Origin: Pedosphaera parvula Ellin514
GTDB lineage: Bacteria; Verrucomicrobiota; Verrucomicrobiia; Limisphaerales; JADJPG01
Direction of reading: 5' to 3'
NCBI GenBank assembly: GCA_943332515.1
Contig: CALQPR010000021.1
Span: 9,737 to 73,736, forward strand
Length of the DNA stretch: 64,000 bases
Part shown: in pieces, positions 17,739 through 52,400 of the stretch
Layout of the letters: every line of letters starts with the position of its first letter
How positions within the stretch are numbered: the first letter of the stretch is position 1
Notes under the pieces: generated by a model
Told to the model about the DNA's origin: nothing
The model's input: only the letters and a program-made list of their open reading frames with translations
The model's database searches: none
Made by a program: the position numbers and the translations under genes

Positions 17739-18521
17739 TCAAGTCTGGCGTTTGCGGAACTCCATCGGGGTCGCGCCGGTGGCGGAACGAAACGCGCGGC
17801 TGAAGGCGCTGTGATCGTAGAAGCCGCACGAATGCGCGATTTCCGCGACCGGCTGATCCGTCTCCAGCAACAGCCGCGAGGCGGCGGCCAGCCGGGTCTG
17901 CGTGATGAGCTGGCTGGGCGTGAGGCGGAAGATGCGCTTGATGAGTCGGGCGAAACGGATCGGGGAAAGTCCGGCGCTTCTTGCCAGCGATGCGGGGGAG
18001 ATGTTCTCGTCGAAATGCGCTTCAAGGAATTCCAGCGTGCTGGCCAGGCTTGAGGGAATGCTCTCGCGGTCGCCGGGAGCGCGGAGATCGCGCGAAATAC
18101 CGGCAAGGCCGATGATTGCGCCAGAGGGTGCGCGGAGCGGAAGCTTGGTAGTCAGGCACCAGCCTGATTGCCGTCGTGCGTACCAGTGGAGTTCCAGGCG
18201 GTCGACGATCGGGCGACCAGTGCGCAGCACGGTTTCATCCTGCGCCGCGTAACGCGCCGCTAGGTCGTTCGGGAAAACGTCGCGCACATGGCGTCCGACG
18301 AGTTGCGGCTTTTCTCGCAGGCCACAGCGTTCGACGAGTGACTGGTTTACTGCGAGATAGCGTCCTGCGGAGTCTTTGAGGAAGAAGACCGTGTCAGGAA
18401 TGTGATCGAACAACTGTTCCATCACCGCGAGGCTCGCGCGGAAGTCCGGCTGCGAAGCGTGGTGGGCGAGAGTGGTGGCTGGTGTGCGCGAATTCACGGC
18501 TTGGCTGTCATTCCAGTCCAA
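17739..18521 (-). CDS. PAS-domain AraC-family transcriptional regulator
   Basis: The N-terminal region is PAS-like (FDHIPDTVFFLKDSAGRYLAVNQSLVERCG). The C-terminal AraC HTH has SPASLARSAGLSPIRFARLIKRIF...IAHSCGFYDHSAFSRAFRSATGATPMEFR. Confidence 0.8.
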   Translation of the reverse strand: MDWNDSQAVNSRTPATTLAHHASQPDFRASLAVMEQLFDHIPDTVFFLKDSAGRYLAVNQSLVERCGLREKPQLVGRHVRDVFPNDLAARYAAQDETVLRTGRPIVDRLELHWYARRQSGWCLTTKLPLRAPSGAIIGLAGISRDLRAPGDRESIPSSLASTLEFLEAHFDENISPASLARSAGLSPIRFARLIKRIFRLTPSQLITQTRLAAASRLLLETDQPVAEIAHSCGFYDHSAFSRAFRSATGATPMEFRKRQT

Positions 18522-18593
18522 GACATTCTCCGGCGCAATGCCAGAATCGCGGACACAAGTTGCACGCCTATGAATTCACCTATTGATTTATGC

Positions 18594-18753
18594 CAGCCCT
18601 CTACCCCAGGAGAGGGAGCGCGACGAATCGCATCATGCACACGGGAGTTTCTCTCCGCGTCTGTTCGCGCATGGATCGCGGCGAGACAGTTCGAGTTTAC
18701 GAGCGCATTCTCCGCGCTCCCTCTCCTGGGGGAGAGGGCTGGGGTGAGGGCGG
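18594..18753. repeat. MITE/REP-like element of about 160 bp with 29-bp terminal inverted repeats built from the same unit as 6954..6990
   Basis: The left arm is CAGCCCTCTACCCCAGGAGAGGGAGCGCG (18594-18622). The reverse complement of the right arm (18713-18753) reads CCGCCCTCACCCCAGCCCTCTCCCCCAGGAGAGGGAGCGCG. The arms differ at one base over 29 bp. Confidence 0.65.
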
Positions 18754-21257: not shown

Positions 21258-21315
21258 GGAGTAATAGCGAGCGTTCTCGACACGTCAGGCGTAAACGACA
21301 TCCTTCCGGCACACG

Positions 21316-34769: not shown

Positions 34770-34816
34770 CAATGTAATGACAATGAATGCGCGCTGGATA
34801 TACTTTGCATCACGCT

Positions 34817-35107
34817 ATGGAGTTTGATTGGAACAATCCGCCGTTTAACTTGAGCAGCTCAATTTCCATCAAGGATATTGAGGAATCGTTTGAGGACCCG
34901 TTTGCCGTCCGTCTGCTTCCCGATTCCCCGCGTTTCTCCGCTCAAGCCAGGTTTTTCAATCTCGGAGTTTCCGCCAGCGGGACGGGGCTTCTGACCGTCT
35001 ATCGGACGAACGGCAAATCAGCCCGGGTCATTCATGCGCGCTCGTTCGAGTCGGAGGAGAAGTTCTTTTATCAACGGAAGATGAACCAGACGCTCGGAAC
35101 CACCTGA
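34817..35107 (+). CDS. BrnT-like (DUF497) toxin
   Basis: The ATG at 34817 gives MEFDWNNPPFNL...IEESFEDPFAVRLLPDSPRFSAQARFFNLGVSASGTGLLTVYRTNGKSARVIHARSFESEEKFFY. This follows the BrnT pattern FEWD...F.DP......D.......R....G....G.ll.vvyT.R....RiIsAR.a...E...Y. Confidence 0.75.
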   Translation: MEFDWNNPPFNLSSSISIKDIEESFEDPFAVRLLPDSPRFSAQARFFNLGVSASGTGLLTVYRTNGKSARVIHARSFESEEKFFYQRKMNQTLGTT

Positions 35108-35127
35108 GCGCTGCGGAATCAAATCGT

Positions 35128-35430
35128 ATGAACGTGATTAACAGTTGGGACGATGTGCCGCTCTTCGATAGCGAGGAAGGCGAGGCGGCGTATTGGGCGG
35201 AGAATCGACTCGACCTGCGCCTGATGGAATCCGCCGTGGCCGGCACCTCTGAGCTCTCGGAATCTGTTACCATCACCCTGCGCATGGACCCCCGCATGTT
35301 GGCGCGCATTAAAAGGCTGGCGCGCTCCCGCTATCTCAATTACCAAAGCATGATGAAACAATGGCTGAGCGAACGCATGGAGAACGAACTCCGCGAACGC
35401 GACAGCGGTTCCGTGCGACAAAGATTATGA
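35128..35430 (+). CDS. BrnA/CopG-like antitoxin
   Basis: 100 aa, starting 20 nt after brnT. The C-terminal segment VTITLRMDPRMLARIKRLARSRYLNYQSMMKQWLSERM matches the BrnA pattern (i.iRld.d.l...K..A...g..YQtli...L.e.l). Confidence 0.7.
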   Translation: MNVINSWDDVPLFDSEEGEAAYWAENRLDLRLMESAVAGTSELSESVTITLRMDPRMLARIKRLARSRYLNYQSMMKQWLSERMENELRERDSGSVRQRL

Positions 35431-36035
35431 TGAGCAAGATTCCCAAGTTCTCGAACCTGTGCGCTGAACGTATCCATCGGCCCTGCGTTCGCAGCGCCTT
35501 CAGCTTGATCGAGATGCTGGTGGTCATCGCCATCATCGGCTTGCTCGCGGCCTTGGTCGTGGGCGGCGCTTCTCATTTCCGCGAAACCTCCGTGCGCGCC
35601 CGTGTGCAGACGGAGCTGAACCAGGTGGTGTCCGCGATTGAGTCCTACCACAAGAAGTATGGGTTCTATCCGCAAGGCAATGGTGCTAGCTCTCCCGACC
35701 CGGTTAAGGCTCCCTTGTATTACGAACTCACGGGAACCGAGGCCGCGGCACCGGTTATCGCTTACTTTGGGGTCAAAGGGATCGTCAACGAACTCGGGAA
35801 GGAAGGTCAAAACTTCTTCTCTAACATTGGTATCGAAGGCAAGAACTACAAAGTCGTCCCCAATGTGCCGGCGAATCCGTTGGTCTTGACCGCAGGTTAC
35901 AAAGGCCCGGATGGCGACGTGAACCCCTGGCGTTACGTCTCCAAGAACCCGACGAACAACACCGAGACCTACGACCTCTGGGCGGAAGTCCTCGTCGGAA
36001 ACAAGAAGATCGTGATCGGTAACTGGAAAGACTGA
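35427..36035 (+). CDS. GspG-like pseudopilin (prepilin-type N-terminus), copy 1
   Basis: The ATG at 35427 overlaps the brnA TGA (ATGA). The leader is MMSKIPKFSNLCAERIHRPCVRSA, followed by FSLIEMLVVIAIIGLLAALVVGG with Glu at +5. GspG-like ESYHKKYGFYP and C-terminal YDLWAEV are present. Confidence 0.8.
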   Translation: MMSKIPKFSNLCAERIHRPCVRSAFSLIEMLVVIAIIGLLAALVVGGASHFRETSVRARVQTELNQVVSAIESYHKKYGFYPQGNGASSPDPVKAPLYYELTGTEAAAPVIAYFGVKGIVNELGKEGQNFFSNIGIEGKNYKVVPNVPANPLVLTAGYKGPDGDVNPWRYVSKNPTNNTETYDLWAEVLVGNKKIVIGNWKD

Positions 36036-36242
36036 TTCATGCACACCGCTGTTAACCCCTCGAAGAGCACCCGCCGCCGCTTGGATGTGGCGTGGACTGA
36101 TGTCTCGTGGGATCTGTCGTCTCTCCGTCTGCGAAAGCCGCCCTCGTTATTTTGGAGCACTGCCGGGTCATCAGCCGGAACTCGGGCTGGCGTTTCGCCA
36201 TCGGTCTCCTGTCGTCTGCCAAGTCCCTTTGCTTTTTCTCCT

Positions 36243-36956
36243 ATGATGAAACAATCCCTGAACTACTCCCGCCGCGCTCGCGGCTTCACGCTCATCGAAC
36301 TGCTGGTGGTCATCTCCATCATCGCCATTCTCGCCGGGCTCCTGCTCCCCGCCATTGCGCGGGTGAAGTTGCAGGCGAAGGTCAAGCTCGCCAAGGCGGA
36401 GATGAACATGATCGCCTCCGCCATCAAAGACTACGAGGCCGCGTATGATCGCTATCCGGCTTCCAAGGAGGCGGAGACGTATGCGAGTGACAATGGAAAC
36501 CAGGCCAAGCCTGACTTCACTTTTGGTGGACCGAGTCCGGTCACTCTAGGAACCCCGCCACAGCTGCGAGACAATCGGGATGTCATGAAGATCCTTTTAG
36601 ACATTGATGACGCAGACGGTCCGAATAAAGATCACAAACGTAACCCGAAGAAGACCGTTTTCATGAATGCGAAGCCTGCCATCAATAATGGTCCGGGACA
36701 GGGCGCGGATGGAGTGTTTCGCGATGCGTGGGGTAATCCGTATGTGATCACGATCGACATGAATGATGACAACAAGTGTCACGACGCTTACTACAGCAAG
36801 ATGCCGCAGGGCAGCGCCGTGGGATTGAATGCCGCCGGCGAAGTCACGGTTCCCGTCATGGTCTGGTCACCGGGCCCGGACGGTAAGGCGGATCCCGCTG
36901 TTGCGGCCAACCAGGGCGTGAACAAGGACAACATCCTCAGTTGGTCCGCCCGTTAA
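36243..36956 (+). CDS. GspG-like major pseudopilin, copy 2
   Basis: The ATG at 36243 gives MMKQSLNYSRRARG followed by FTLIELLVVISIIAILAGLLLPA. GspG-like IKDYEAAYDRYP, RDAWGNPYVI and VWSPGPDGKAD are present. The ORF-track start at 36039 is unlikely because it adds a non-protein-like extension. Confidence 0.85.
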   Translation: MMKQSLNYSRRARGFTLIELLVVISIIAILAGLLLPAIARVKLQAKVKLAKAEMNMIASAIKDYEAAYDRYPASKEAETYASDNGNQAKPDFTFGGPSPVTLGTPPQLRDNRDVMKILLDIDDADGPNKDHKRNPKKTVFMNAKPAINNGPGQGADGVFRDAWGNPYVITIDMNDDNKCHDAYYSKMPQGSAVGLNAAGEVTVPVMVWSPGPDGKADPAVAANQGVNKDNILSWSAR

Positions 36957-36958
36957 TC

Positions 36959-37747
36959 ATGCGCCTCCTCCCGGACAACCAACGCCGCCGCCGCCGCCAG
37001 TCCAGGGCGCGTGGTTTCACGCTCATCGAGCTCATCGTTGTCCTCGTCATCATCGGGTTGCTCGCCGCCGTTTCGCTGCCTGCGCTGAAGAACGTTCGCC
37101 AGAACAACGCGATGGTTTCTGCTGGGCGTCAGCTTGTGCAGGATCTCGCGAACGCCCGCGCCCGAGCCATCGGCGAACAGACCACCGTGTATGTCGTGTT
37201 CATGCCGGACATCTCGGGTCAGACCTTCAATAACTTGACGGCGCGAGAAACCAAACTTGTGGAGCGGCTCAAGTCGGGGCTCTATCGCAGTTATGCCACC
37301 TTCGCTCAACGCACTGTAGGAGATCAGCCTGGGACTTTGAACCCTCGTTATCTTGGCGACTGGAAATCACTGCCAGACGGCATCATCATCGAGACGAACA
37401 AATTCATGGGCCTCTTTCCTGCCGCTCCAGAGCTGCAAGCCCTGAGATACCGCTCGCAGGAATTCCCTTTCCCCACCGGTACCAGTGCCTACAGCAATTC
37501 ATTTCCGTGCGTGGCGTTCGATAATCGCGGTCGGGTGGTGGACCCGAACAATCACAGCGTTGTGCTGACGACAGGCGAAGTCATTCCCTTGGCCCGTGGC
37601 AGCATTCTCTACTCGCGTGCGGCTGACGGTTCTTTGATCGATGTGCCCGATGTTCGCGAAAGCGTGCCAGATGACCTCGCTAAACACTGGGTCGTCATCA
37701 ACGGGCTCACCGGTCGCATCCGCGTCGAAACCACCGAGCTTAAATGA
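36959..37747 (+). CDS. GspH/FimT-like minor pseudopilin
   Basis: The ATG at 36959 gives MRLLPDNQRRRRRQSRARG followed by FTLIELIVVLVIIGLLAAVSLPAL. The segment then reads AMVSAGRQLVQDLANARARAIGEQ, as in GspH. Confidence 0.75.
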   Translation: MRLLPDNQRRRRRQSRARGFTLIELIVVLVIIGLLAAVSLPALKNVRQNNAMVSAGRQLVQDLANARARAIGEQTTVYVVFMPDISGQTFNNLTARETKLVERLKSGLYRSYATFAQRTVGDQPGTLNPRYLGDWKSLPDGIIIETNKFMGLFPAAPELQALRYRSQEFPFPTGTSAYSNSFPCVAFDNRGRVVDPNNHSVVLTTGEVIPLARGSILYSRAADGSLIDVPDVRESVPDDLAKHWVVINGLTGRIRVETTELK

Positions 37748-38496
37748 ACTGCCGCATCACCAACCCAGCCCATGCAACGGAGCGACGGGCTTTGACCGGG
37801 CGCATTGATCAGGTGGCCGGCTTCTCCCGCGCGACTCAAGGTTTCACCATGATCGAAATCGCCATCGCGCTCGGCGTGATCGGTTTCGCTCTTGTTGCCA
37901 TTCTGGGCATCCTGCCCTTCGGCCTCGAAGTTCAGCGCGACAACAGGGCAGAAACCATCATCAATCAGGACGCCACGTTCTGGATCGAGGCCATCCGCAA
38001 CGGTGCCACTGGCATGGATGACCTCACCAACTGGGTGGAAGAGATTTCCACGCCGGATTCTGCGGCGGCCAACAGCTCCTACACATTTCGCGCCGGTGGC
38101 TTGAGTGATTATCAATACAGTTACGGCAGCAACATCATCAGCCTCCTGAGCACCGCACGGCGTTTTGATAACGGTAGAGTCGAGGCGATCGTCACCTCCA
38201 TCAGCGGCTCTGCTGCTGAGAAGGAATTGAATGCAGACGCGCGCGTCATCGCCTTCCGCTACCGCCTTGCCGTCGAAATTATTTCGTATTCCACCAACGC
38301 CCCTTCCTTCGATTTTCTCAACGCTCCAGCCAGTTTCCCGTACCTGGATACTCTCCACGAACTGCGCCTGACCTTCTCCTATCCCTACACCGGCAAGGGC
38401 ACCGAGCCTCGCCGCAAGACCTTCCGTTCAACCATCAGCCGGAACGTGGTGACCAACGTGGTGGGGCCTCGTGAGTACTACCTCTTTGCTCAATGA
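37744..38496 (+). CDS. GspI-like minor pseudopilin
   Basis: The ATG overlaps the upstream TGA (ATGA). The motif is QG then FTMIEIAIALGVIGFALVAILGILP. Its size and position between the H-like and J-like genes fit GspI. Confidence 0.65.
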   Translation: MNCRITNPAHATERRALTGRIDQVAGFSRATQGFTMIEIAIALGVIGFALVAILGILPFGLEVQRDNRAETIINQDATFWIEAIRNGATGMDDLTNWVEEISTPDSAAANSSYTFRAGGLSDYQYSYGSNIISLLSTARRFDNGRVEAIVTSISGSAAEKELNADARVIAFRYRLAVEIISYSTNAPSFDFLNAPASFPYLDTLHELRLTFSYPYTGKGTEPRRKTFRSTISRNVVTNVVGPREYYLFAQ

Positions 38497-39470
38497 ACAT
38501 CCCTTACAACCCGCAGCGACCGGTGCCACTGGTGGGAACGAGTTTCACCTCGTCCCGTTTTGTTTCCCGCGCATTCTCTCTCATTGAGGTCATGGTGGCG
38601 GTGTCGTTGCTCTCCTTCATCATCGTCGGGTTGCTCGCCATGTTCTTCCAGGTCCAGCGTGCCTTTCGCGCTGGAACGGCGCAGGCGGACATCATGGAGG
38701 GCGGGCGTGCCACCATGAATCTCATCGTGCGCGACCTTCAGGAGATGACCGCTTCCGGCGTGGATTTGGTGACGAACTGTCTCGTCACCGCATCGTTCGG
38801 CGCGGCAGTGACCACTCAAGACCTCGTCAGCGGCAATCGGCCGCGCCAGAACTTTCAGCAGGATCTGTGTTTCCTCACCCGCAACAACGACGAATGGGTC
38901 GGGGTGGCCTACCGGCTGAGCAACTCCGTCAGTGGCGTGGGCACGCTCTACCGACTCGTCACTAACCAATTTATCGAAACTCTTCCGCTCAACCAGATGG
39001 TTGCCATCTCGAACATGAGCGGGCTGCTTCGTGCCTCCACTCCATATAACGACACCAACTTCGCCCGTGTGCTTGATGGCGTTGTCAGCCTTATCATCAC
39101 TCCCTACGACACCAACGGCGCGATTCACCCCAACAATGACCCTGACCTCGCCCGCGTGTTCCCGCCGGTGAATCCACAGGCAACCGATGCCTTTGACCGC
39201 ACCAACGCCTTCATCCACGTCATCAACCCGGACTTCTTCGCGTTCTTCAGCAACGCCCTCCCGGCCTATCTGGACATCGAGCTCGCCGTAATCGAACCCG
39301 CCACCCTCGCCCGGTTCAAAGCCCAATGGGATATCGATGTGACACAAAACGGACCGAACGGCCCGCCGACTCGCGCCACCAACTACCTCGCGAGGCGCAT
39401 TGGCCAGACCCACATATTTCGCCAGCGCATAGCCATTCGCCCGTCTGCGACAGAGATCAGCTCTCGTTGA
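38493..39470 (+). CDS. GspJ/PulJ-like minor pseudopilin
   Basis: The ATG overlaps the upstream TGA (ATGA). The motif is SRA then FSLIEVMVAVSLLSFIIVGLLAMFF. The segment then reads AQADIMEGGRATMNLIVRDLQEM, as in GspJ/PilW-type proteins. Confidence 0.65.
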   Translation: MNIPYNPQRPVPLVGTSFTSSRFVSRAFSLIEVMVAVSLLSFIIVGLLAMFFQVQRAFRAGTAQADIMEGGRATMNLIVRDLQEMTASGVDLVTNCLVTASFGAAVTTQDLVSGNRPRQNFQQDLCFLTRNNDEWVGVAYRLSNSVSGVGTLYRLVTNQFIETLPLNQMVAISNMSGLLRASTPYNDTNFARVLDGVVSLIITPYDTNGAIHPNNDPDLARVFPPVNPQATDAFDRTNAFIHVINPDFFAFFSNALPAYLDIELAVIEPATLARFKAQWDIDVTQNGPNGPPTRATNYLARRIGQTHIFRQRIAIRPSATEISSR

Positions 39471-39491
39471 TGAATTCTCATTTCCCTTAAG

Positions 39492-42400
39492 ATGAAGCTT
39501 AGAATCCAGCGCCGTTGTTCAGCCACTTTTCCTCTAGTAAGGACGGTCTCGTCCGCGATGGTTACTCGGCTTTTTGGCGTCGTTAGCAGTCGAACCTCAT
39601 CCATGCGCAATCGCGGCGTCGCCCTCGTCATCACCCTCATCTTGCTGGCCGTCATCACCACACTGGCCATCGCGTTCCTCGGCCTGACCCGTGGCGAGAC
39701 CAAGTCCGTGGATGCCATGAACCGCACGACCGACGCCGAGATGGCCGCTGACAGCGCCCTCGAACGTGCCCGCGCCGAAATTCTTGCGCCCTTCATCGCG
39801 CGCAATACTGCGTTCCCCGGCAGCGAACGCATGGGGCCGGACTTCATGGTCTCCGTGGGCTCCGACACCAACCGCATCCGATCACAAGATGCTTCCCGGA
39901 ACCCAACACCGCCTGTGTTCGTGGAGACCAATCGCCCGAGCGGTCCCAAGGGTCCCTATGAAGATCGATTCTACCTGGATCTGAATCGCAACCGGACGTT
40001 CGAGAACACTGGATACGTCCCGGTGACGGACGACAGCTTCAATCAAGTTGGAGTCCAGACCGAATGGGCGGTGGGAGACCCGCAATGGATTGGCATTCTT
40101 CAAAACCCCCGCGTTGGCCATGCCAGCAGCAATCGCTACATCGCCCGCTACACCTTCATGGTTCAGCCTATCGGTCGCTCCCTCGACGCGAACTGGATTC
40201 ACAATGAAGGTGTGCCTCGCACGACAGGCACGCCGGGCTATTACCGCGAGCAGGGTGTCGGCTCCTGGGAACTCAATCTCGCAGGGTTTCTCTCTGACCT
40301 GAACACCAACTATTGGAACAGTGTTGCATCTCCCTATACCTACGCTTCCGATCCGTTGCCCAACAGGTTCGGAGGAACTGGCGCGGCATTTGTCGATGCG
40401 AACGAATTCCTCACCAACCGCTTTGGCAGTGGTCTCGATTGGGCGAGCCGGGTGTTCCCCGGCAGCGGCAACAGTTTCACGACGGATCAAATCGATTTGT
40501 TCGCCAATGGCTTCGTTAACACAGGCAATCCTGATGACAATGACCAGCCGGACAACCCCTGGCCCGGAGCATCGAGCAAAGTGAATTACTTCGCTCCGCA
40601 CGAATACTTCTCCAAGTTTACCAAGCCCAATGGATTCAAAACCCGCTTGCAGAACGCTTCCGCGCGCGGCAACTCGTATGATCGTTACACCTTCTACCGG
40701 ATGCTTGCGCAGATGGGCACCGACTCCGCCGAGGAAGAGGACGGCAAGGTCAACATCAACTACGTGAACGTCCGCTCGTGGGCCACAGGAGAACGGATTC
40801 TAGCGTCCGACATGATTCCTTGGTCCACCAATGCGGCTGACATTTATGTTCCCCGACTTGGACGCACTGTGAACATGGGGCGGCCTGTCCCTGAGATTTT
40901 TTTCCTGACCGTCGTTACCAACCTGCTGGCTCGCGAACCGTCTCTGGCCTTCATGGTGACGAACCGCATCAACGGAACCTTGTTCAGCGCCCCGATTTTT
41001 ACCAATCGCTCGACCTACACGACGAACACTCCGTTCAACGAACCTCTCTACACTGCCCGACTTCATCAGCTCATGCAGATCACGGCGAATATCTTCGACG
41101 CCACGATCACTAATAAGGTGGGCGAAGCGTTTCCATATTTTCCGACTGTCTTTCGCCCTTTCTTCACCGAGTCAAATGGCAACGTCTATATCACTGACTA
41201 TGGAGTAATGAACGAGACAGCAGACGCGTTCCGGACCAACCCTCAGTACAGGTGGGTGGATTTGGAAACTGGCGAAACTCTTTCAACCGCTCAAGGCTCA
41301 CTCAATCTCGTTTACGGCATTCCTCTCGTCATTGGTGCGCGTTCAGGTTTGCCCAGCTTCAACGAACTGGGCGTGGTGTCGCTTGCTCAAGCGACTCGCA
41401 AGCTAACGATGTCTCGCTCCACCCCTGGCACCCCGGCCAAAAAATGGGATCGACTCGAACAGCGGTTCCACCTCCAGGCACGGACCATGTTGCAGGTGGA
41501 AGCGCGAAATTCGCACACGAACCGGTATCCGCGTCCACTGCAAATGATCACCGAAAGCCGTCCGTATCTGGAATTGAAGGAACGCACCAATGGATTGGCC
41601 ATCGTGCGAACGGATTGGAAGACGGGTTCTACAAATAATTTTCCGCTTTCGTTTTGGGGCCGCGAAATCGTCGGCTCGGAGAACACCGGCAGCTCAAACT
41701 TGGTTCTCTCCCCGCTTTTCGTGACCAATCTGTTGGACTTGTTGATTGTAACTAACGCCGAATCTTACCTTCCTACTAACCAGTGGACGATGACGCTGAC
41801 CAACCGCCTGCTGTTCTATTTGATCGATCGAGATCCCAGGGTGCCCGGAGGCAGAATCATCGATGCCGTCACTCTGAATCGGCCCCACAACGTCTTCCAG
41901 ATCGGCACGCTCCTGGATTCTCCATGGAACGAGGCGGGTTCGCTTCGCGACATCTGGAATCCAAGGCGTCAAGGGACGGTTACAGCGGGAATCATGGAGC
42001 AAATTCGCATATCAAAAGATGCGAGCCTTACGCCTGAAGGGATCTGGGGTAATTGGGAGGACTCCGCGAACAAGGTGAAGTCGGCGCAGCATTTTGGAGA
42101 TTTTTATGACGACACGTCGAAGCTGGAGACGAATCAAGTCCCGTTCACGCCGTCCCGGCTTCTGGTTCAGGCCGATTATTATCAGGTTGATGATCCGTTG
42201 GTTCACTACACCTTCGAGGACTTGCGCGATGATCCTGATACAGGCAAAAAGAAGCTTGGCAGCGTAAACCTCTCGAGTGACTACACTAATCTCACCAAGA
42301 AGATATTTGGAAGGAACAAGCATTCCTTGGCTTGGAACAAGGGTGCGCTTGGGGCGGAGCTAAGCGGTGAACCCGCTGGCCAAGGGACATTAGACACCAC

Positions 42401-43328
42401 AATTCGTGATCCGGGCATAATTCACCCCTTTTACTGGAACTTCCCGAAAAATTCCTTTCCAAGCATCGGCTGGCTTGGACGGGTCCATCGTGGAACGCCA
42501 TGGCAGACCATCTATTTGAAAAGTCGCGGGTTAAGCCCGGCGGCGAACTGGATAGATCACACCGGTAATCAAAGGGTTGGTCATCCTGCGAGCGCGAACC
42601 AGATGCAGCCGGTTCGAGATTGGGAATTGCTTGATGTGTTCACGACCGCACCACATCCAAACGCCACGCGCGGTCGCCTGTCGATCAACCAGACGAATCC
42701 GGCGGCGTGGTCAGCCCTGCTTTCGGGTGTGCTTGCGAGCGGGGTTGAGCCCGACCCAAATGACGATGGTTTTGTCCGACCAACGAGCCCTTTGATGGGG
42801 CCTGCAGCCCTGAATTCGACCGTTCAACTGATCGCGCAATCCATCAACACCAACCGGGCGCGGTTCAACTCCAACAGTCTAAACCAGGGCGGGCAATATC
42901 ATGGAATCGGCCAATTGCTTGCGTCGCCCGAACTCACGGATTCATCTCCGATTCTCAAGGGCGATCCGACGCTGTTCGATCCCTTCATGCCTCACGGCAA
43001 CGCCCGCATCTACGACGAGGACTATGAGCGCATCCCGCAGCAGATTCTCTCGTTACTGAAGGTCGGCGAGCCGCGCTTCGTGGTCTATGCGTGGGGCCAA
43101 TCCCTCAAGCCGGCCCGGCGGGATCCAGACGATTCCGGGCCGTCGATCTTGCCCGCGGATGATCCAAAGTTTGGTCTCCGTGGTTTGTGCAGCAATTACC
43201 AGATCACCGGTGAAACGGCGACGCGCGCTGTCATCCGGGTGGAGTTTGATCGATTCCCAAACGGCCAGATCAACTACGCCCGGCCGCACGCCGTGGTGGA
43301 GAGTTTTAACATCATCCCGGTGGAGTAG
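39492..43328 (+). CDS. Giant GspK/PilX-like minor pseudopilin (about 1,240-1,280 aa)
   Basis: The hydrophobic N-terminus MRNRGVALVITLILLAVITTLAIAFLGL has no Glu+5, as in GspK. GspK-like signatures are NATRGRLSINQTNPAAWSALLSGV and DGKVNINYVN. The start is 39492 (21 nt after the J-like gene) or the internal ATGs at 39558 or 39603. Confidence 0.65.
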   Translation: MKLRIQRRCSATFPLVRTVSSAMVTRLFGVVSSRTSSMRNRGVALVITLILLAVITTLAIAFLGLTRGETKSVDAMNRTTDAEMAADSALERARAEILAPFIARNTAFPGSERMGPDFMVSVGSDTNRIRSQDASRNPTPPVFVETNRPSGPKGPYEDRFYLDLNRNRTFENTGYVPVTDDSFNQVGVQTEWAVGDPQWIGILQNPRVGHASSNRYIARYTFMVQPIGRSLDANWIHNEGVPRTTGTPGYYREQGVGSWELNLAGFLSDLNTNYWNSVASPYTYASDPLPNRFGGTGAAFVDANEFLTNRFGSGLDWASRVFPGSGNSFTTDQIDLFANGFVNTGNPDDNDQPDNPWPGASSKVNYFAPHEYFSKFTKPNGFKTRLQNASARGNSYDRYTFYRMLAQMGTDSAEEEDGKVNINYVNVRSWATGERILASDMIPWSTNAADIYVPRLGRTVNMGRPVPEIFFLTVVTNLLAREPSLAFMVTNRINGTLFSAPIFTNRSTYTTNTPFNEPLYTARLHQLMQITANIFDATITNKVGEAFPYFPTVFRPFFTESNGNVYITDYGVMNETADAFRTNPQYRWVDLETGETLSTAQGSLNLVYGIPLVIGARSGLPSFNELGVVSLAQATRKLTMSRSTPGTPAKKWDRLEQRFHLQARTMLQVEARNSHTNRYPRPLQMITESRPYLELKERTNGLAIVRTDWKTGSTNNFPLSFWGREIVGSENTGSSNLVLSPLFVTNLLDLLIVTNAESYLPTNQWTMTLTNRLLFYLIDRDPRVPGGRIIDAVTLNRPHNVFQIGTLLDSPWNEAGSLRDIWNPRRQGTVTAGIMEQIRISKDASLTPEGIWGNWEDSANKVKSAQHFGDFYDDTSKLETNQVPFTPSRLLVQADYYQVDDPLVHYTFEDLRDDPDTGKKKLGSVNLSSDYTNLTKKIFGRNKHSLAWNKGALGAELSGEPAGQGTLDTTIRDPGIIHPFYWNFPKNSFPSIGWLGRVHRGTPWQTIYLKSRGLSPAANWIDHTGNQRVGHPASANQMQPVRDWELLDVFTTAPHPNATRGRLSINQTNPAAWSALLSGVLASGVEPDPNDDGFVRPTSPLMGPAALNSTVQLIAQSINTNRARFNSNSLNQGGQYHGIGQLLASPELTDSSPILKGDPTLFDPFMPHGNARIYDEDYERIPQQILSLLKVGEPRFVVYAWGQSLKPARRDPDDSGPSILPADDPKFGLRGLCSNYQITGETATRAVIRVEFDRFPNGQINYARPHAVVESFNIIPVE

Positions 43329-43465: not shown

Positions 43466-46400
43466 ATGCAATTCAGAACGCGAACCTGGTTCATCATCAG
43501 CCTGTTGTTCTTCGTGGCTGCTGCCGTCTTCTGGCAACTGGGCGAGCGCAAGCTGGCGCGGGACAAGGCCGCGAAGAGCGCCGTGTCGGGTCCGGCTGCG
43601 GCTGGAGCCACTGCTGGTTCTTCCCTGACCAACGCACCCGTCGTCCCCGCTGCGGCCACCAATGCTTCCGTGCTCGCGACCAATGCCAATGATCCGCTGC
43701 GCTTTCGCTTGAGCAACACCACGCTGACGGAGCGCCAACTTCTGGATCGCGACCCGGCGTTGCTGCTGATGAACGCGCTGGTGGATACGGCATCCCCGGT
43801 GAATCTCCCCATCCCGGCGCATTTGCGGGCGCAGGGTGATCCAGGGAGTTACGTGGTCCAGTCTCGCGGGCCGTTGACGGACGCCTTCCGTGCCGCGCTC
43901 AAGCTGGCGGGAGTGGAGATCGTTTCTTACGTGCCGAACAACGCGTATCTGGTCCGCGCTTCAGCTGCTGCTGCGACGCAACTGGCCGCTCTTCCGCAAA
44001 CGCAGACGGTGCTGCCGTGGGAACCGTATTTCAAACTGGAGGATGAACTCTTGGCTCTGGCGGTGGAGCAAAAGCCCCTGCCAGTCACGCGCCAGTTGAA
44101 CGTGCTCGTGTATTCGGCGGACCGGCAGGCGGTCGAGACGACGCTGGCGGCGATGAACGTCGTGGTGATTGAAGCGGAGCGTTCGCCGTTTGGTGTGCTG
44201 TTGGTGGTGCGTCCGCCGCGGGATGCCGTGGTGGCGCTGGCGCAATTGCCGGGGGTGCAACGCATCGAGATCAATCGTCTGAAAGTAACGGCGAATGATC
44301 AGGCGCGCACGCGCCTGCGGGTTTCCACCAACGGCCTGCTCGCCGCGCCGTCGTTCCGGAATCTCACGGGGCAGGGCGTGCTGGTGAACGTGAATGACAC
44401 GGGCGTCGAGGGAATTCATCCGGCGCTCACCGGTCGCGTGCTCGGCCTCCAGACGGATCTCGAAGGTCACGGCACGCATGTCGCCGGAACCATTGCCGGC
44501 GACGGTGCGAACAGTCCCGCCGGGGCGATTCCGGGTTCAGTTACGAACGCGAGTTTTCGCGGCGTCGCTCCGGCGTCGAAGATTTTCGCCAACACCTTTG
44601 GCAACAGTGATGCGAACATGCAGGAGAGTGCGGCGGCGACGAACGCCTTCATTTCGAACAACAGCTGGGGCTACATCGACGGTGGCGGCTACACGCTCTC
44701 CGCGGCGAGTTGGGATGCGGCGGTGCGCGATGCCTTGCCCGGCGTGGAAGGATCGCAGCCGTTGCTCGCGGTGTTCGCGGCTGGTAACTCCGGCGCTTTT
44801 GGAATCGATGCGCCGGCGTCAGCCAAGAACGTCATTACGGTCGGCGCGTTGGAGAATCTTCGTGGCATCACCAACTTCGTGACGGTGATCGAGTATGCCG
44901 AAAGCAATCGCTTCCAGCCGTGGCTCGACATGACGGACAGCAGTAATCAGGTGGCGTCCTTTTCCAGCGTCGGGAATATCGGTCGTCGTCGCGAGGGTGA
45001 GTCCGGTCGGTTCAAGCCCGATGTGGTGGCTCCGGGAACGTTCGTGATCTCCGCTCGAGCGAGCACTTGGGTGCAGCCGACGAATTTATACAGCTATGAG
45101 ACGAGACGGATTCCTCTGGTCCGCCTAGACGCGGATGAATTCGAAGTGTACTCGGTTTTCGTCCCGCTCCACGGTGTGCAGATTGATGTCACCTGCCAGC
45201 CAAACCAGTTCACCGGACCGAATCCATTACCGCAGTTGCCAATCTACGTGCAGGAAGGGAGCGCACCGGCGGTGCCGGGCACTTCCGTGGGTGATAACCG
45301 AGCCACCGTGGGACCGCCGCTGGTGCCGGTCCCGCCGGGAACGTGGTATATCGCCGTCGAGAACAAGGGCAGCAACATCGCGCGCTTTGATGTCTCGATC
45401 ACGGTGACCATCACCAATAATTTGGGCGACGAGCCAGAGCAGTTCTTCAAGCTGAACGAGATACTGGCTCCAAACTACCGTTACGAAAGTGGCACCAGCA
45501 TGGCGGCCCCTGCGGTGTCCGGTGCGCTGGCGTTGATGCAGGAATATTTCGCAACGCTTGGTGCGACCAACAGCCCAGCGCTCATGAAGGCGCTGCTGAT
45601 CAACGGAGCGCGCTCCGCGAACGACGAGTATGACTTCGACGTCAGCGCGGATCGCAATCGGCAGGGCTGGGGCCTGGTGAATATCACGAACAGTGTTCCC
45701 GGCACCGCGACTGTCGGGCCCGGTTACGATTCCGCCCAACGCACGCTGACCAGTCCGACCATGGTCTGCTACGATCAGGTCAGCACCCGCGCGCTGGCCA
45801 CCGGACAGAGCTTCACAAAGAGCGTGAACATTGCTGCCAACGCCCGCACGTCGCCGCTGCGCTTTTCGCTGGTCTGGACCGATCCGCCGGGAAATCCCTC
45901 CGTGGGTGTGAAGCTGGTCAATGATCTGGACCTCGTGGTCTCGAACAACGTTACGCACGAGATCTTCGCCGGTAACTCATTCGGCCCCGGCAACACGTTC
46001 ACGTTTGGGAGCGATACCAATACCACGAACGGGTTGGTGCTCGATCGCGTGAACAATGTTGAGAATGTGTATGTCAGCGCCTCGTTCAACCAGCGCCTGT
46101 CGGATTCCTACACCGTCACCGTCTCCGCCCGCCGGGTGAATGTGAACGCCGTGACGGCGCATCCTGATGGCGTGGTGCAGGACTTCGCGCTGGTCATCTC
46201 CCATGGCAACCCGCGCACGGCCATCGGTTTCCCCATCACGTTGGGCAACGAGCCGATCATCGACGCGCCGCTGCCCGAGGTGACCGTCGTCACCAATGGC
46301 GTGCCGCTGTTGAACCAGCGGGCGGGTGCCAATTCGCCGCTGGTGGTGCCGGCTGGATTGGAGTTCACCAACGGTGTCCCGGCCCAATGGCATTTCTTCG

Positions 46401-49400
46401 TCGTCACGAATCAATTGCCGCAGTCAGACCCGCAATTCACCAACGCCCCGATTGCCGCCGCGACGAACATCGCCTTCGCCACGTTCCTTCCGCCCAATCT
46501 TTCACGCGCCCGCACCAACCGGTCGGACATCGATTTGTATGTGTCGCGCGATTCCAGTATCACAAATCTGAATCCGGCTGCCATCGCCGCCTCACGCCGT
46601 TCCCTCAAGCGGGGCGGCACGGAGTCGGTGGTGCTCGGGCTTGCCGATTCTTTGAGGGGTGGAGAGATCTTTTACGCTGGCGTAAAGTGCGAGGATCAGC
46701 AGGCGGCGAGCTTCGGCTTCTTTGCCGTCTCCAGCAGTTCGCCCTTCAGCAGCACGGATACGAACGGCAATGTGTACATGGAAGGCTATCCCTTCGGTGT
46801 GGAAATCCCGGATGGCACTCCCGCCGAGCCGCAGGCGGCGTTCATGTTCGCTTTCTCTACGGAACAGATCGTCATCCAGAATGTCGTTGTCACCAATTAC
46901 ATCACGCACACCAACGGCGGCGATTTGTTCGGCGCGCTGGATCTCGATGGCAGCAAGGTCTCGGTGCTCAATGCCAACCGTTCCTTCCACAGTCTTTTCC
47001 CTTACGAGTTCATTTACGACGACAGCGATTCGGGCGAAATTCAGGGGAGCACTCGTACGGATACGCCGGGAACACTTCGCAACTTTGTCGGTGAGGAAGG
47101 GCTGGGTGCGTGGCGATTGACGATGGTGGATAGCGCGCCCGGTGACACTGGCCAGGTGAACCGGCTCCTGATCAAGCTTGAGCCACGCAAGGAAGACCTG
47201 ACCAATGGCGTCGGCATCGTGGAGACGATTCTGCCGGGACGCTTTTTCTACACCGTGGTGGATGTCTCCGCGACGGTGACGAATCTCCAGGTGTGCGTCT
47301 CGCCGGACGCCGGCGTGGTCGAGGTGTATATCCGGCGCGCAGACTTTCCGGACCAGGACAATTACGACATCCTTGGCGTGGTCGGGCCGCCGGGGGATTG
47401 CATCAACCTGGGCCTGCGCGATTCGCCGCCGCTGTCTCGCGGCCGCTACTACATCGGCATCTACAACCCGAACGCGCTGGCGGTGACGGTGGGCATCAAG
47501 GTGAATCTCCAGCATGATTTGAGGAAGGGATCGACCCTCCGCTTCCGTGGTGGCGATGGGGAGCTGATCGTCGATGACGCGGTGACGACGTCCACGCAGT
47601 TCGTCGGCTACAACGGGATCATCTCAGATGTGGAAGTGGGAATCCGCATCGCGCATGAGCGGGTGTCGGATCTCGTGCTTCACCTGGTCAGTCCGGAAGG
47701 GACGCGTCTGTTGCTCACGGAGAATCGCGGAAGAGACACGGCGGATTATGGGTTCGGGACGTTGCAGACGAACTTTTTTGCTCTGCCGGTTGACCAAACT
47801 AATAATCCCACTTCTGTAACGAATGTGTTCGGTCCGATCCTGCCGGAAGGCACCATCAGTATCACGTATGATTTCGGGAACCAGTTCACCGACCGAATGA
47901 CCGTCTATTACGATGGGATTCGGATCTATGACACAGGAGTTGTGCTGGGACCGGGTTCGTTCTCGGTTGATTATGGTCCGGGTCTGGCGACGAACTTTGT
48001 CGTCATCATGAATGAGGATGGGAATCCATTTGGAGGCACCGGATATACTTACACGCCGACCGTGTACACCAGTTACCACTATTCCACCTTCACCGAGAGC
48101 ACCGAGCGCGCGCGTCTGCCCATCAAGTTCGAGCCGCCGCCGTTCACAAACTTCAACTACTACGCCACGAACTACGTCACTAACGTCACGCTGGTGGCCG
48201 ATGGCTTCGAGGATCGTTTCCGGGGACCACGATTGCTCGGCACGGGAGCGAACCTCACCGGCTGGCAGGTCACGACCGGCAGCGTTAACGTCGTGACGAA
48301 CCTCTCCAATCTCGCGACCAACACATTCCTCGCGGCCTATGAGGGGTTGAGGTTCATCGATCTCAATGGTGTCACCAATGGTGTGATCGCGACGAACCTG
48401 ACCACGGTTCCTGGCACGTCCTATCGCGTCAGCTACGTCTATGCAAAGAACCCTGCCAATCCCAGCGACACCACGGCGGACATCCGGCTGCTGGATACCA
48501 ACAGCATTCGCTTCCAGAAGGAACTCGTCATCGCCTCGGCAGCGACGTGGCGAACCGGCGCGTTCTTCTTCAATGCGCTGGATGACCGCACCACGCTGGA
48601 AGTCATGTCCACCACGGCCAGCGATTCCGGCGTGCTCTTCGACATCTTCAGGGTCGAGCAGATCTCTACGAACATCGTCGCGGGCATCTATTATCTGCCC
48701 GAGGAACCGCTCACGCCGCTCTTTGGCCAGAACGCGTTTGGCAACTGGACGCTGGAGATTCTCGACAACCGCGTCGGTGGTGGCGTCACCAATTCGCTGC
48801 TCGGCTGGAAGCTGAACCTCACCTTCGTAAACACGAATCCTCCGGCCATCCAGCTCTTCAACGACACCAACTACTGCCTGACCATGCAGGCAGATGAGAC
48901 GGTGTACTTCTACGTGGACGTGCCGATCACCGCTTCCGCAGCGACGAACTTCTTCAGTGGCAGCGATCAACTGGATGTCTTCTACAACCAGAGCGGCCTG
49001 CCGGCATTGCATGAACCGCCGGACACTGCCTTCTTCTACAACGTGCTGGATGGGCAGACGGTTCTGGGCATCGATGGCTGGAACAGCATTGATGACGCCG
49101 GGGGCTTCGCGGGAGGTTCCGTCACCCCGACGCTCGCACCGGGCAAGCGCTACTACCTCGCGCTGCACAATCGCGGCACCGGCACCAACGGCGTGTGTGT
49201 TCGCGTGGCGTTCGATGAGCTTTCGCCGAACCTCGTGGGCATCATCCCGCTCACCAACCAGTGTTTTAGCTATTCCGGCGTCGTCACGAATGCCGGGGCG
49301 ATTGATTATTACTCGTTCGATGTTGTTTCTAGCAACGCGCTGGGTGTTCGCTTCTCGGTGACGAATATTATCGGAGGGTCGTCGAACGACGTGAACCTCG

Positions 49401-52400
49401 TGGTGCGTCGTGGCGTGCCGCTGCCGAACCTCACGCGTTACACCGGGATCAGCACTAATGCCTCGCCGTTGGATGGGGAGTTCATCGAAGTGGCGGACTT
49501 CTTCCAGACGACGCTCGCTGGTCGTTGGTATATTGGCGTCATTCACACCACGGTGAACCCGGTCGCCTACGACGTGTGCGCCGAGGAAGTGGGGGGCGAC
49601 ATCACCGAGGTTTTCAATAACGTATTGCAACCCGCGCAGAACGCTGCGGTGACCAATGCCGGCGACATCAGCTACTTCAAGATTCTGATCTCGCCACGCA
49701 CCTTCCTTGCTGACTTCCAGCTCACAAATATCGTCGGCGGCAGCAACATGGACCTCTACCTCAGCTCGGGCACCATGCAGCCGTTGTTTGGCACGCCGAC
49801 GAACTGGCTGTACGCCTCGACGAACTTCAGTCCTGCGCCGGCTCCCAATAACTTCGAGTCCAACCGTGTCTCGGCGTTCTCCTCGAGCCAGCCGCTGACT
49901 CCGGGATGGTGGTTCGTCGCAGCCGTCAACAAGTCGGCAGGGCCGGTGGATTTCGGAGTCCATGTCACGGAGTACCAGACAAACCTTCCCTACCTCCAGC
50001 TCACGAACGGTCTCGCGTTCTGCAAAACCCTGATCGATTCCAATGACATCGGCTTCTACTGGTTCGATGTCTCCCCGGATGCATTGCAGGTGGACTACGA
50101 GGTCTTCAACCTAAAGGATGATGCGGACCTGTTCGCGCATCCGCTGTTTGAGCTCCCGCCGCCCGGCTTCCTGCGCTTCCTCGATCTCGCGAGCACAAAC
50201 CTGCTGACGGCGGACGAGTTTATTGGGACGACCTTCACGACCGGCCAGCGGCCGTTTCCCTTCAGTCTCTTGAGCTCTCGTGGTCCGTGGTATCTGACGG
50301 TCAAACCCAAGGTGCCGATTCCGGTGCCGGCCCAGGTCTATCCCATCGATTACTGCATCCGCGCCACCGAGATCACCGCGCGTGATGTTCAGCCGCTGAC
50401 CAACGGACTGGCGGTTTGCAAAACCATCCCTGGCCGCGACACCAACACGCTCTATACGGGAGTGCAGTTCCATTCCATCGATGTCGTCGGCGTTCCCTTG
50501 CAGGCGACGTTCGAGACCTTCGGGGCCAATGGCAACGTGGACCTCTATGTGCAGCGCAACCTGCCGTTCACCAATTACAGCACCTACACCAATGGCGGTT
50601 CCAGTTTGTATCCGTACTCCGGCGAGCAGTTGGGGACGTTGGGAGAATACATCTGCATCGGCACGAACACGACGCCCGTGGCGCTGGCTCCCGGCCGCTG
50701 GTACGTGGTGGCCGTAAACCGTGAGGTGGTTTCGGTGGATTACTGCCTGCGTGCGTCCTTCGTCTCCTCGCAGAACCTGGTTCAGATCGGCAACGGCGAG
50801 ACCTTCTGCCGCACTCTTGGCATCGCCAATGGCGGGCCGATCTCCGGTCAGGATTACTACGTGTTCCGCGTCGCCACCAACGTCGTGCAGGCGACCTTCG
50901 AAACTCTTTCGTCGAGCGGCAACGTGGATCTTTTCCTCACCAGAAACCTGTGCCTGACCAACTTCAGCACCTACAACGCCGCGCTCGCGCCGTATCCCTA
51001 CTACAGCACGAACCTCGGCACGCAGCAGGATCTCATCTGCCTCGGCACGAACACCACACCTGTGAACCTGGGTCCGGGCGATTGGTATCTCACCGTGGTC
51101 AACCGGGAACCCCTGACGCCCGTGGACTATTGCGTCCGCTCCACGCAGTTGGTCTCGACCAACTTCATCCGCGTCACGAACAGCGGTGCCATCTGCAACG
51201 TGGCGGGTGTGGGAACAAATGACGGCACCGCCGCCACCGGCATCGATTACTACATCATCGACGTCAGCAGCAGTCCGGTGCTGATGAACTTCCAGACCTA
51301 CAACGCCAGCGGTAACGTGGACCTCTACGTCACGCGCGATCCATGCCTGCCGAACTTCGCGGCGTTCGATGCCGCCACCACGGACTATCCGTACTCCAGC
51401 ACGCTGCCGGGCACTGCCGCGGAATGCCTGAGCGTCACCAGCACCTCCGTGCCGCAGGTGCTGACGAACGGTGAATGGTATGTGGCCGTGGTGAACCGCT
51501 CTGCCACGCCGGTGAGCTACTGCTTCCTCGCCACGCCGTTTGCAACCGACCCTGCCACGCCCTTGACCAACCGCGCTCCGCTTTGTGCCCAGACTGTCAC
51601 CAACGGCAGCGACACGAACCTCGTCGGCGCGAATTACTACGCCTTCGACGTGCCCACCAACGCGCTGCAAGTGACGTTCGAGGTCTATGGCGCGAGCGGC
51701 AATGTGGACCTCTACGTGAGCGACGGCTTCTGCTTCGAGAACCGCGACACTTTCTCTCTCGCCACCACGAACGCCGCCTACTTCAGCACGAATCTCGGCG
51801 TGACCAGCGAGAGCATTCTCGTTGCAGGTTCATCCTCGCCCGCGCCGCTTGTGACCGGCCCTTGGTATCTCGCCGTGGTGAATCGTGAGCCTTCACCGGT
51901 CGCCGTAGATTATTGCGTCAAGGTGACCGCGCTTCTGACCACGGATGTCGTCGGGCTCACCAATGGCATTGGTTACACGCCGTCCAGCGCGCTGGCTCCG
52001 CGCAACGTCGCGTTCTACCACTACAAGATTTCGCCAAACGCGGTGCAGGCGACCTTCCAGATTATCAATGCCGACGGCGACGTGGACCTCTACGTCGAGC
52101 GCGGCTTCAGTCCGGCGGACATTTATTCGTCCAGCTACGCCAGCACCAACGCTGGCATGATCGAGGAACGGGTCACCGTTTCGACCAGCTCCCCTGTGCC
52201 GCTCACGCCGGTCGAGTGGTTCCTCGCGGTGACGAACTCTGATGCCTCCGCCGTGAACTACACCGTGCGTGTCACCGAGGTGCTCGATACCGGAGTCATT
52301 CGCCTCCTCAACGCTCTTCCTTACACGAACACCGTCGCCGCCCTCGGTTCCCTCACCGGGTTGCCGGCGAACTATTACGTCTTCACCGTCTCGAACGACG

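Follow-up and report, generated by a model that had tools for sequence, protein, structure and literature searches.

The window analysed here is a stretch of 64,000 nucleotides (nt) from contig CALQPR010000021.1 of Pedosphaera parvula Ellin514 (phylum Verrucomicrobiota, order Limisphaerales). It encodes, at the end of a run of pilin genes, a very large pilin-like protein, referred to here as the giant K-type protein. It is reasonably probable that this protein is the apical minor pilin of a type IV filament, because it carries a K-type prepilin signal, its family has universally lost Glu5 of the pilin helix, its gene follows those of H-, I- and J-position pilins, and its operon is linked to PilB/PilT/PilC-type motor genes. 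The K-position minor (pseudo)pilin caps the pseudopili of type II secretion systems (T2SSs) and type IVa pili (T4aP), and K-position subunits decide what ends these filaments. K-position pilins known so far are either small or bring in a large adhesin as a second protein, PilY1 being one example. The giant K-type family is large, uniform and unannotated, and in it the tip subunit itself appears to be a 135-kDa protein of unrecognised fold, whose gene is firmly linked to those of a giant subtilase and of a motor with a PilT. If the protein does sit at the tip, the family provides a tractable case of a very large cargo mounted in cis on a filament tip, and would suggest a function for a highly conserved, uncharacterised operon of an abundant soil and freshwater lineage.

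The gene and its family

The giant K-type gene is real, and occupies positions 39492-43328 of the forward strand as an uninterrupted frame of 1,278 codons and a stop. The version of the protein in public collections has 1,241 amino acids (aa) and begins at Met38. Because a leader of 8 aa (median of 117 aligned relatives) precedes the conserved Gly, Met38 (ATG at 39603) is the probable start. A leader longer than that from Met38 may be used, as the frame is open back to the ATG at 39492. The predicted mature protein starts at Val42 whichever start codon is used. Between the stop codon of the J-like gene and Met38 lie 132 nt (39471-39602); relatives have the two genes touching or overlapping. 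The features of the gene are as follows.

39492-43328, forward strand: whole open reading frame (ORF), giant K-type pilin-like protein; probable start 39603, 1,241 aa
39603-39686, forward strand: predicted class III (prepilin-type) signal, the leader MRNRG followed by the hydrophobic helix VALVITLILLAVITTLAIAFLGL
39726-40175, forward strand: rest of the N-terminal helix, a loop and four beta-strands (AlphaFold2 secondary structure, invariant columns)
40266-41105, forward strand: mostly helical region of ~280 residues with DGKVNINYVN (AlphaFold2; weak likeness to the GspK SAM-like repeat)
41148-41900, forward strand: beta-rich region of ~250 residues with strands of 13-20 residues (AlphaFold2)
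41901-43055, forward strand: mixed, alpha-rich region of ~380 residues with the most conserved motifs and no fold match (AlphaFold2, conservation)
43074-43325, forward strand: three long C-terminal beta-strands (AlphaFold2 models and conservation)

The family to which the protein belongs is both large and uniform. A word-indexed sequence search gave more than 1,283 matches; among the 120 matches listed, nearly all cover 94-100% of the query, all are 1,060-1,362 aa long, all are named "hypothetical", and most come from Verrucomicrobia/Pedosphaera-type metagenome bins. A phmmer search with the single sequence against 1.84 billion representatives found 1,599 proteins at E<=1e-3, of which 764 remained at E<=1e-30. 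At the latter threshold the family comprises at least 764 clusters at 50% identity, and its best 150 members are 1,123-1,446 aa long. The family profile detected the protein in 188 of the 201 genomes of the window's order, including 139 of 142 high-quality genomes, and in 115 of 119 genera, usually as a single copy in one frame without internal stops. The same profile found no member at E<=1e-10 in 300 other genomes of the phylum, and no paralogue was found in the window genome.

A K-type prepilin N-terminus

An earlier reading of the sequence, made without database searches (the sequence-only reading), had described the N-terminus as a GspK/PilX-type hydrophobic helix that lacks Glu+5, and the family comparison bears this out. 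The string RGVALVITLILLAVITTLAIAFLGL lies at 39612-39686, and cleavage by prepilin peptidase is predicted after the Gly at 39615-39617, between RNRG and VALVI, which makes residue +5 of the mature protein Ile, not Glu. Gly stands at position -1 in 105 of 109 family members. Glu is found at +5 in none of the 114 members that have a residue there; I, V, T, L or M takes its place. A missing Glu5 is an accepted mark of the apical K-position subunit (PMC12918778).

Profile searches place the N-terminus in the same class. The GspK model NF037980 matches over its positions 2-58 with E 4.4e-4 and 19.9 bits (cut-off 130), and TIGR02600, the Verru_Chthon cassette A model, matches over its positions 1-53 with E 2e-8 and 32.7 bits (cut-off 332.3), a result with which a whole-genome search agrees. 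PilX_N (PF14341) matches weakly in 21 of 38 family members (best E 7.9e-5); Pfam gave no match to the window's own protein at E<=1, PilX_N included. In profile-profile comparisons with hhalign, the family aligned with TIGR02600 proteins over the first 63 residues (38 versus 38 sequences, probability 95.9%), and with ten T2SSK-bearing GspK proteins of the same order at the N-terminus (probability 72%). When Pfam and NCBIfam were run on the whole protein, the matches were confined to the N-terminal ~55-60 positions. On these profile comparisons, the N-terminus is of the K-type (GspK/PilX-type) prepilin class, better than chance.

A body of unrecognised fold

The architecture of the remainder was modelled with AlphaFold2. 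The model of residues 79-1278 (1,200 residues), built from a 59-sequence alignment, has a mean predicted local distance difference test score (pLDDT) of 81.8 and a predicted template modelling score of 0.79; a second model, of the C-terminal 471 residues, has a pLDDT of 76. In the larger model the order of elements encoded at 39726-40175 is that of a pilin-type head domain, which suggests a pilin fold. A DLNRN(G/R)xFE loop within this domain (39972-40013) reads YLDLNRN(G/R)xFExTG across the family, with D126, N128 and R129 invariant. By eye, this loop (DxNxN(G)xxE) looks like a calcium loop of the EF-hand-like kind. A similar EDxNQNGxLD loop is present in GspK proteins of the same order; it is the best local hhalign match but is not significant.

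The alpha-rich region contains DPLVHYT (42189-42212), GWLGRVHRGTPWQTIYLK (42468-42521) and DVFTT..GRLSINQTN..AAWSALLSGV (42633-42731). Further motifs of the region, in their family form, are NDWxLLDVFT, GRLSINQTNxAAWSAxLSG and YERIPQQILSLLK. The last strand, (A/V)VVESFNI(I/L)Px(E/D)-stop (43287-43325), is kept to the final residue in essentially all 117 aligned members. By analogy with GspK and CpaL, this strand is a candidate for folding back. Conservation is even along the whole chain, and there is no hypervariable segment or head.

The claim that several hundred interior residues are without a recognisable feature holds up in sequence and structure searches. Pfam found no family in the ~1,150-aa body, and a PDB search with a 117-sequence profile found nothing at E<=10. 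Structure prediction followed by Foldseek, the route proposed in the sequence-only reading for placing the inserted regions, gave no significant match for the confident AlphaFold2 models: the 1,200-residue model matched nothing at E<=1e-3 in the PDB or in BFVD, and the best PDB match of the C-terminal 471-residue model had an E of 0.48. The best PDB matches of the large model (E 0.013-0.1, ~140-390 columns) are immunoglobulin-like sandwiches (GH2 accessory domains, ApaG, RhoGDI). These non-significant matches probably stem from the beta-rich region at 41148-41900.

Two interior regions were compared with the SAM-like repeat of GspK. Residues 360-450, which include DGKVNINY (within DGKVNINYVN at 40740-40769), align on the repeat by hhalign with a score of 24.3, versus 11.8+-1.7 for column-shuffled controls. 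Residues 1015-1125 align with 23.4, versus 12.5+-2.4 for the controls, and contain GRLSINQTN...IVxGINxxR...F...L..PEL; the GspK repeat is N(I/V)NTA...LPG...A.AIV.YR. The likeness of these "NIN" regions to the GspK repeat is suggestive only. The N-domain (residues 60-200) did not score above controls against GspK by hhalign, and a resemblance of the last strands to GspK strands, noticed by eye, failed the hhalign control test.

A conserved operon with a giant protease gene

The giant K-type gene is preceded by a BrnT-like gene, a CopG/BrnA-like gene and genes for two GspG-like pilins, a GspH-like or cassette-D-like pilin, and I- and J-position pilins, and is followed by the gene for an S8 protease. 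The neighbouring genes are listed here.

34787-35430, forward strand: BrnT-like (~95 aa) and CopG/BrnA-like (~91-100 aa) pair, head of the operon
35361-36035, forward strand: pilin 1, GspG-like, SAFSLIE with Glu5; likely start near 35427
36039-36956, forward strand: pilin 2, GspG-like, RGFTLIE; likely start at an internal MM ~12 residues before the motif
36941-37747, forward strand: pilin 3, GspH-like or Verru_Chthon-D-like, RGFTLIE
37744-38496, forward strand: pilin 4, I-position minor pilin, QGFTMIE; weak Verru_Chthon B match
38493-39470, forward strand: pilin 5, J-position minor pilin, RAFSLIE; weak GspJ and Verru_Chthon C matches
43466-53137, forward strand: S8 protease of 3,223 aa with an N-terminal hydrophobic anchor, the conserved downstream partner

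All five upstream pilins have the motif (G/A)F(T/S)(L/M)IE with Glu5 kept, and their matches follow the order GspG, GspG, GspH/D, B and J/C-type. With ORFs of 268, 250 and 325 aa (36941-39470), the pilins of positions H, I and J are clearly larger than canonical GspH, GspI and GspJ. These three match their families solely via the N-terminal helix, and the whole tip set is enlarged.

This arrangement is conserved far beyond the window. An eleven-gene layout is common to all five distant relatives examined on long contigs (32-52% identity). Among loci of other genera, all 11 have a J-like gene directly 5' of the K-type gene, and all nine with enough flank have an S8 gene 3' of it. In an order-wide comparison of coordinates, 112 of 149 genomes had the S8 gene immediately 3' of the K-type gene in the same orientation, a median of 158 nt away; the rest are 16 genomes with both genes at contig ends and 21 without an S8 gene among the matches listed. 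The adjacent protease ranges from 2,000 to 4,700 aa. The identities of the K-type and S8 proteins rise and fall together across loci; shared descent predicts the same, and the correlation carries no weight for contact between the two.

In each of the five distant relatives the operon opens with a BrnT-like/CopG(BrnA)-like pair, for example at L040:5175-5759, L039:5028-5639, L041:4029-4618 and L002:4451-5078. The pair has kept much more of its sequence than the pilins have: the BrnT-like and CopG(BrnA)-like proteins are 68% and 80% identical to the L040 copies, compared with ~33% for the K-type protein. By its conservation the pair looks like a fixed regulatory or accessory pair, not a mobile toxin-antitoxin module.

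Linkage to a motor block

A motor block precedes the operon in four of the five distant relatives, in three of them immediately. At the fourth, locus L041, a cut MshEN+T2SSE gene and a T2SSF gene are within the flank, and a radical-SAM gene stands between them and the operon. The block consists of an MshEN+T2SSE gene, usually a PilT-like T2SSE gene (~373-395 aa) and a second MshEN+T2SSE gene, and then a T2SSF gene. The window genome has an orthologous PilB-PilT-PilB-PilC-like block at C53:23646-29718 (locus L042), with 74-85% identity to L040. The gene after this block is an unrelated DUF7133/HEAT/cytochrome c gene.

The window genome contains 13 T2SSE-type ATPase genes and seven secretin genes, all of them on contigs other than the window's, and no secretin or GspC/L/M gene was found near the giant K-type gene. 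One secretin domain, at C39:41910-42407 on the reverse strand, belongs to an open frame of 2,492 aa, a very great length for a secretin. This outsized protein could be relevant to the passage of a 135-kDa tip through the outer membrane. Ordinary T2SSK-bearing GspK genes (open frames of 415-535 aa) stand beside T2SS genes elsewhere in the same genome. Because these are present, the giant K-type gene is an addition to the classical GspK genes and not a replacement for them.

A proposed apical pilin with a multidomain head

The following mechanism is inferred from the sequence features, synteny, taxonomic distribution and lack of known folds described above. Prepilin peptidase would cut the short leader after Gly, between RNRG and V. 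The helix without Glu+5 would mark a subunit with none above it, and this subunit would nucleate the tip, in complex with the pilins of positions H, I and J that are encoded upstream. The two GspG-like pilins would polymerise under this tip, powered by a PilB-PilT-PilB-PilC-type motor, which in the window genome would be that on contig C53. The remaining ~1,150 residues would form one conserved multidomain head of unrecognised fold at the filament tip, made up of the pilin-like N-domain, the helical region, a beta-sandwich-like region, the conserved alpha-rich region and the three-stranded C-terminal sheet. The invariant extreme C-terminal strand probably folds back to complete the sheet of the pilin fold from within the same chain, which GspK and CpaL also do. 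Finally, the head most likely works with the S8 protease encoded just downstream, by docking, presenting or exporting it.

The filament itself would probably be retractile and T4aP-like, and not a pseudopilus of the classical T2SS kind, because a PilT-like ATPase is linked to the operon in relatives. The pseudopilin identity given in the sequence-only reading is not favoured by that linkage. For the head, where the sequence-only reading expected an adhesin or substrate receptor, conserved sequence and gene order favour a partner function, such as docking, presenting or exporting the S8 protease, over that of a diversifying adhesin, because conservation is uniform and the pairing with the giant protease is near-obligate.

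A bolder extension is rather unlikely. The operon may encode a protease-armed retractile type IV filament as a core trait of the order, with the giant K-type protein as a new-fold tip platform that would bear, dock or pass on the S8 protease. If so, a proteolytic "harpoon" would be extended at insoluble protein, prey or biofilm matrix and the products reeled back. This would be filament-coupled extracellular digestion, a mode undescribed for any type IV filament.

Several results weigh against the apical pilin reading. Past residue ~60, neither HMMs (hidden Markov models) nor PDB sequence searches nor Foldseek link the protein to GspK or PilX, and Foldseek runs of both models against the PDB returned no GspK or pilin chain. 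A pilin domain split by ~1,000 residues is a hard target for a local aligner, which bears on the Foldseek result. The T2SSK SAM-like/helix-hairpin-helix domain (PF03934, PF21687) was found in none of the 38 members at E<=1, and hhalign sub-alignments of the C-terminal region with GspK did not exceed shuffled or reversed controls. The hhalign probability of both "NIN" regions against the GspK repeat is just 4-8%. Moreover, the cassette and the probable motor block are separated in the window's lineage, and no secretin, prepilin peptidase or motor gene lies within the 64-kb window.

These results also set the limits of the original identification. The strings quoted in it are all found where they were placed, including DVFTT...LLSGV at 42633-42731, whereas the GspK-likeness read into them is weak, and the body cannot be demonstrated to be an insert between GspK motifs. 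The proposed profile searches were split, with a weak PilX_N match in 21 of 38 members and a T2SSK match in none. What survives of the GspK identity is the K-class N-terminus and the place of the gene at the end of a G-G-H-I-J-like series; strict membership in the family is contradicted by the score of 19.9 bits against 130 and the lack of a T2SSK domain, and Foldseek gave no match to GspK structures.

Comparison with known tip pilins and alternative explanations

The giant K-type protein shares with GspK, XcpX, PilX and PilK (NF037980, PF14341, PF03934) a Gly at -1 and a hydrophobic helix without Glu+5. As with GspK, its gene comes last after those of the H-, I- and J-position pilins and encodes the largest of the set, and its C-terminal beta-strand is kept to the last residue. 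Unlike GspK, of which a structure (3CI0) is cited in PMC12918778, it has no detectable T2SSK/SAM-like domain or Foldseek match, it scores far under the family cut-off, and its linked motor includes a PilT-like ATPase. It is also ~4 times larger than canonical GspK, an enlargement that the sequence-only reading had recognised.

Domains grafted into K-like tip pilins have precedents in ComZ (PMC6561018) and in CpaL and MshQ (PMC12918778). K-family pilins need an extra C-terminal strand, which is supplied in trans by PilY1 and in cis in GspK and CpaL (PMC12918778). CpaL, of the Caulobacter Tad pilus (~600 aa), consists of a pilin-like N-domain, a large middle and an extreme C-terminal strand that completes the sheet (PMC12918778), and secondary structure and conservation suggest the same layout for the giant K-type protein. 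MshQ (~1,200 aa) and PilC/PilY1 are large tip-associated proteins of type IV filaments (PMC12918778). CpaL, MshQ and PilC/PilY1 have no sequence or fold similarity to the giant K-type protein. ComZ of Thermus thermophilus has a GspK-like pilin fold with a large foreign domain in the sheet, and was argued to fit only at the tip (PMC6561018). The foreign part of ComZ is one ~380-residue beta-solenoid, whereas ~1,150 residues of mixed alpha/beta structure are predicted here, and ComZ was not among the Foldseek matches of the giant K-type models.

The alternative that survives best is a sub-variant of the apical pilin reading and differs from it in the role of the head. The protein would be the equivalent of PilX and PilY1 in one chain, comparable to CpaL and MshQ; the head would be a sensor-adhesin for surfaces or substrates such as polymers or prey, and the protease merely co-regulated. 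In size (~1,200 aa) the protein matches PilY1 or MshQ, its K-type N-terminus and conserved C-terminal strand fit, and the PilT-like motor is tied to the operon in relatives. The EF-hand-like DxNxN loop, with its invariant D126, N128 and R129, also agrees with it; EF-hand-like loops occur in PilY1. However, the window protein and the 38 members gave no PilC/PilY1 match in Pfam, and Foldseek returned no beta-propeller or PilY1. The even conservation leaves no variable binding region, and the linkage to the S8 gene is near-obligate. A sensor-adhesin head is rather unlikely.

Somewhat less likely still is that the prepilin-like N-terminus is an anchor or export signal alone, and that the protein is a periplasmic or envelope scaffold or enzyme which matures or holds the giant protease outside any filament. 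The gene always follows four to five true pilin genes in the order H-I-J-K, the operon is joined to a PilB/T/C block in relatives, and the universal absence of Glu+5 is specific to apical pilins (PMC12918778); all three argue against such a role. On the other side, the body has no pilin or GspK similarity, and the cassette stands apart from any motor in the window genome. In addition, the invariant His, Asp, Glu and Arg residues in DPLVHY, GRVHRGTPWQ and YERIPQQ could form an active or metal site; His868, His962 and Glu1142 are among the invariant residues of the protein.

The protein might instead be a divergent true member of TIGR02600. This family was named by TIGRFAMs/NCBIfam with no function given, and giant K-type pilins of Verrucomicrobiota are so already catalogued; no paper on the "Verru_Chthon cassette" or TIGR02600 was found in the literature. 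TIGR02600 is the best NCBIfam match, the lengths are close (1,241 aa versus 1,296 model positions, both in the ~1,300-aa class), and the likeness extends to the phylum, to the N-terminal 60 residues and to a cassette in which three or four small pilins precede the giant, in a D-B-C-A-like order. Yet the match of 32.7 bits against a cut-off of 332.3 covers positions 1-53 only, the profile-profile alignment is limited to the first 63 residues, and the two families occur in different lineages. TIGR02600 genes are multi-copy paralogues (three in genome G123), whereas the giant K-type gene usually occurs once per genome, in nearly every genome of one order, and is linked to a motor block and to the gene of a giant S8 protease. 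Membership is very unlikely, and is effectively refuted at the sequence level by the score and the profile-profile comparison.

By hhalign (38 versus 38 sequences, and a single-sequence run too), the bodies of the two families are unrelated, and the giant K-type family is distinct from TIGR02600 on this evidence. The TIGR02600-type N-terminal module was found in 37 of 151 genomes of the phylum, in open frames of 442-2,129 aa, mostly ~1,000-1,400. Judged by these alignments, giant K-type proteins are phylum-wide in Verrucomicrobiota, with several unrelated bodies on a shared N-terminal module.

The last alternative, an annotation or assembly artefact that fuses unrelated genes, which the sequence-only reading had itself named as fatal to its claim, has practically no probability and is ruled out by full-length collinear homologues (1,150-1,450 aa), each one uninterrupted frame of similar length without internal stops, in 188 of 201 genomes of the order and on hundreds of metagenome contigs; nothing was found in its favour.

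Two further observations concern the proteases of the window. The S8 protease ends in ...ARYYRFFQVP-stop (53108-53137), and the TIGR02600 consensus ends in ...YRFRxIxRKxFAP-stop. Both ends may resemble the short terminal strands with which PilY1 docks on K pilins, and coincidence could account for the likeness. At 18402-23433, upstream and in the same orientation, two neighbouring genes encode DPP-IV/prolyl-oligopeptidase (S9) proteins of 951 and 705 aa, and together with the S8 giant they make this a protease-rich neighbourhood.

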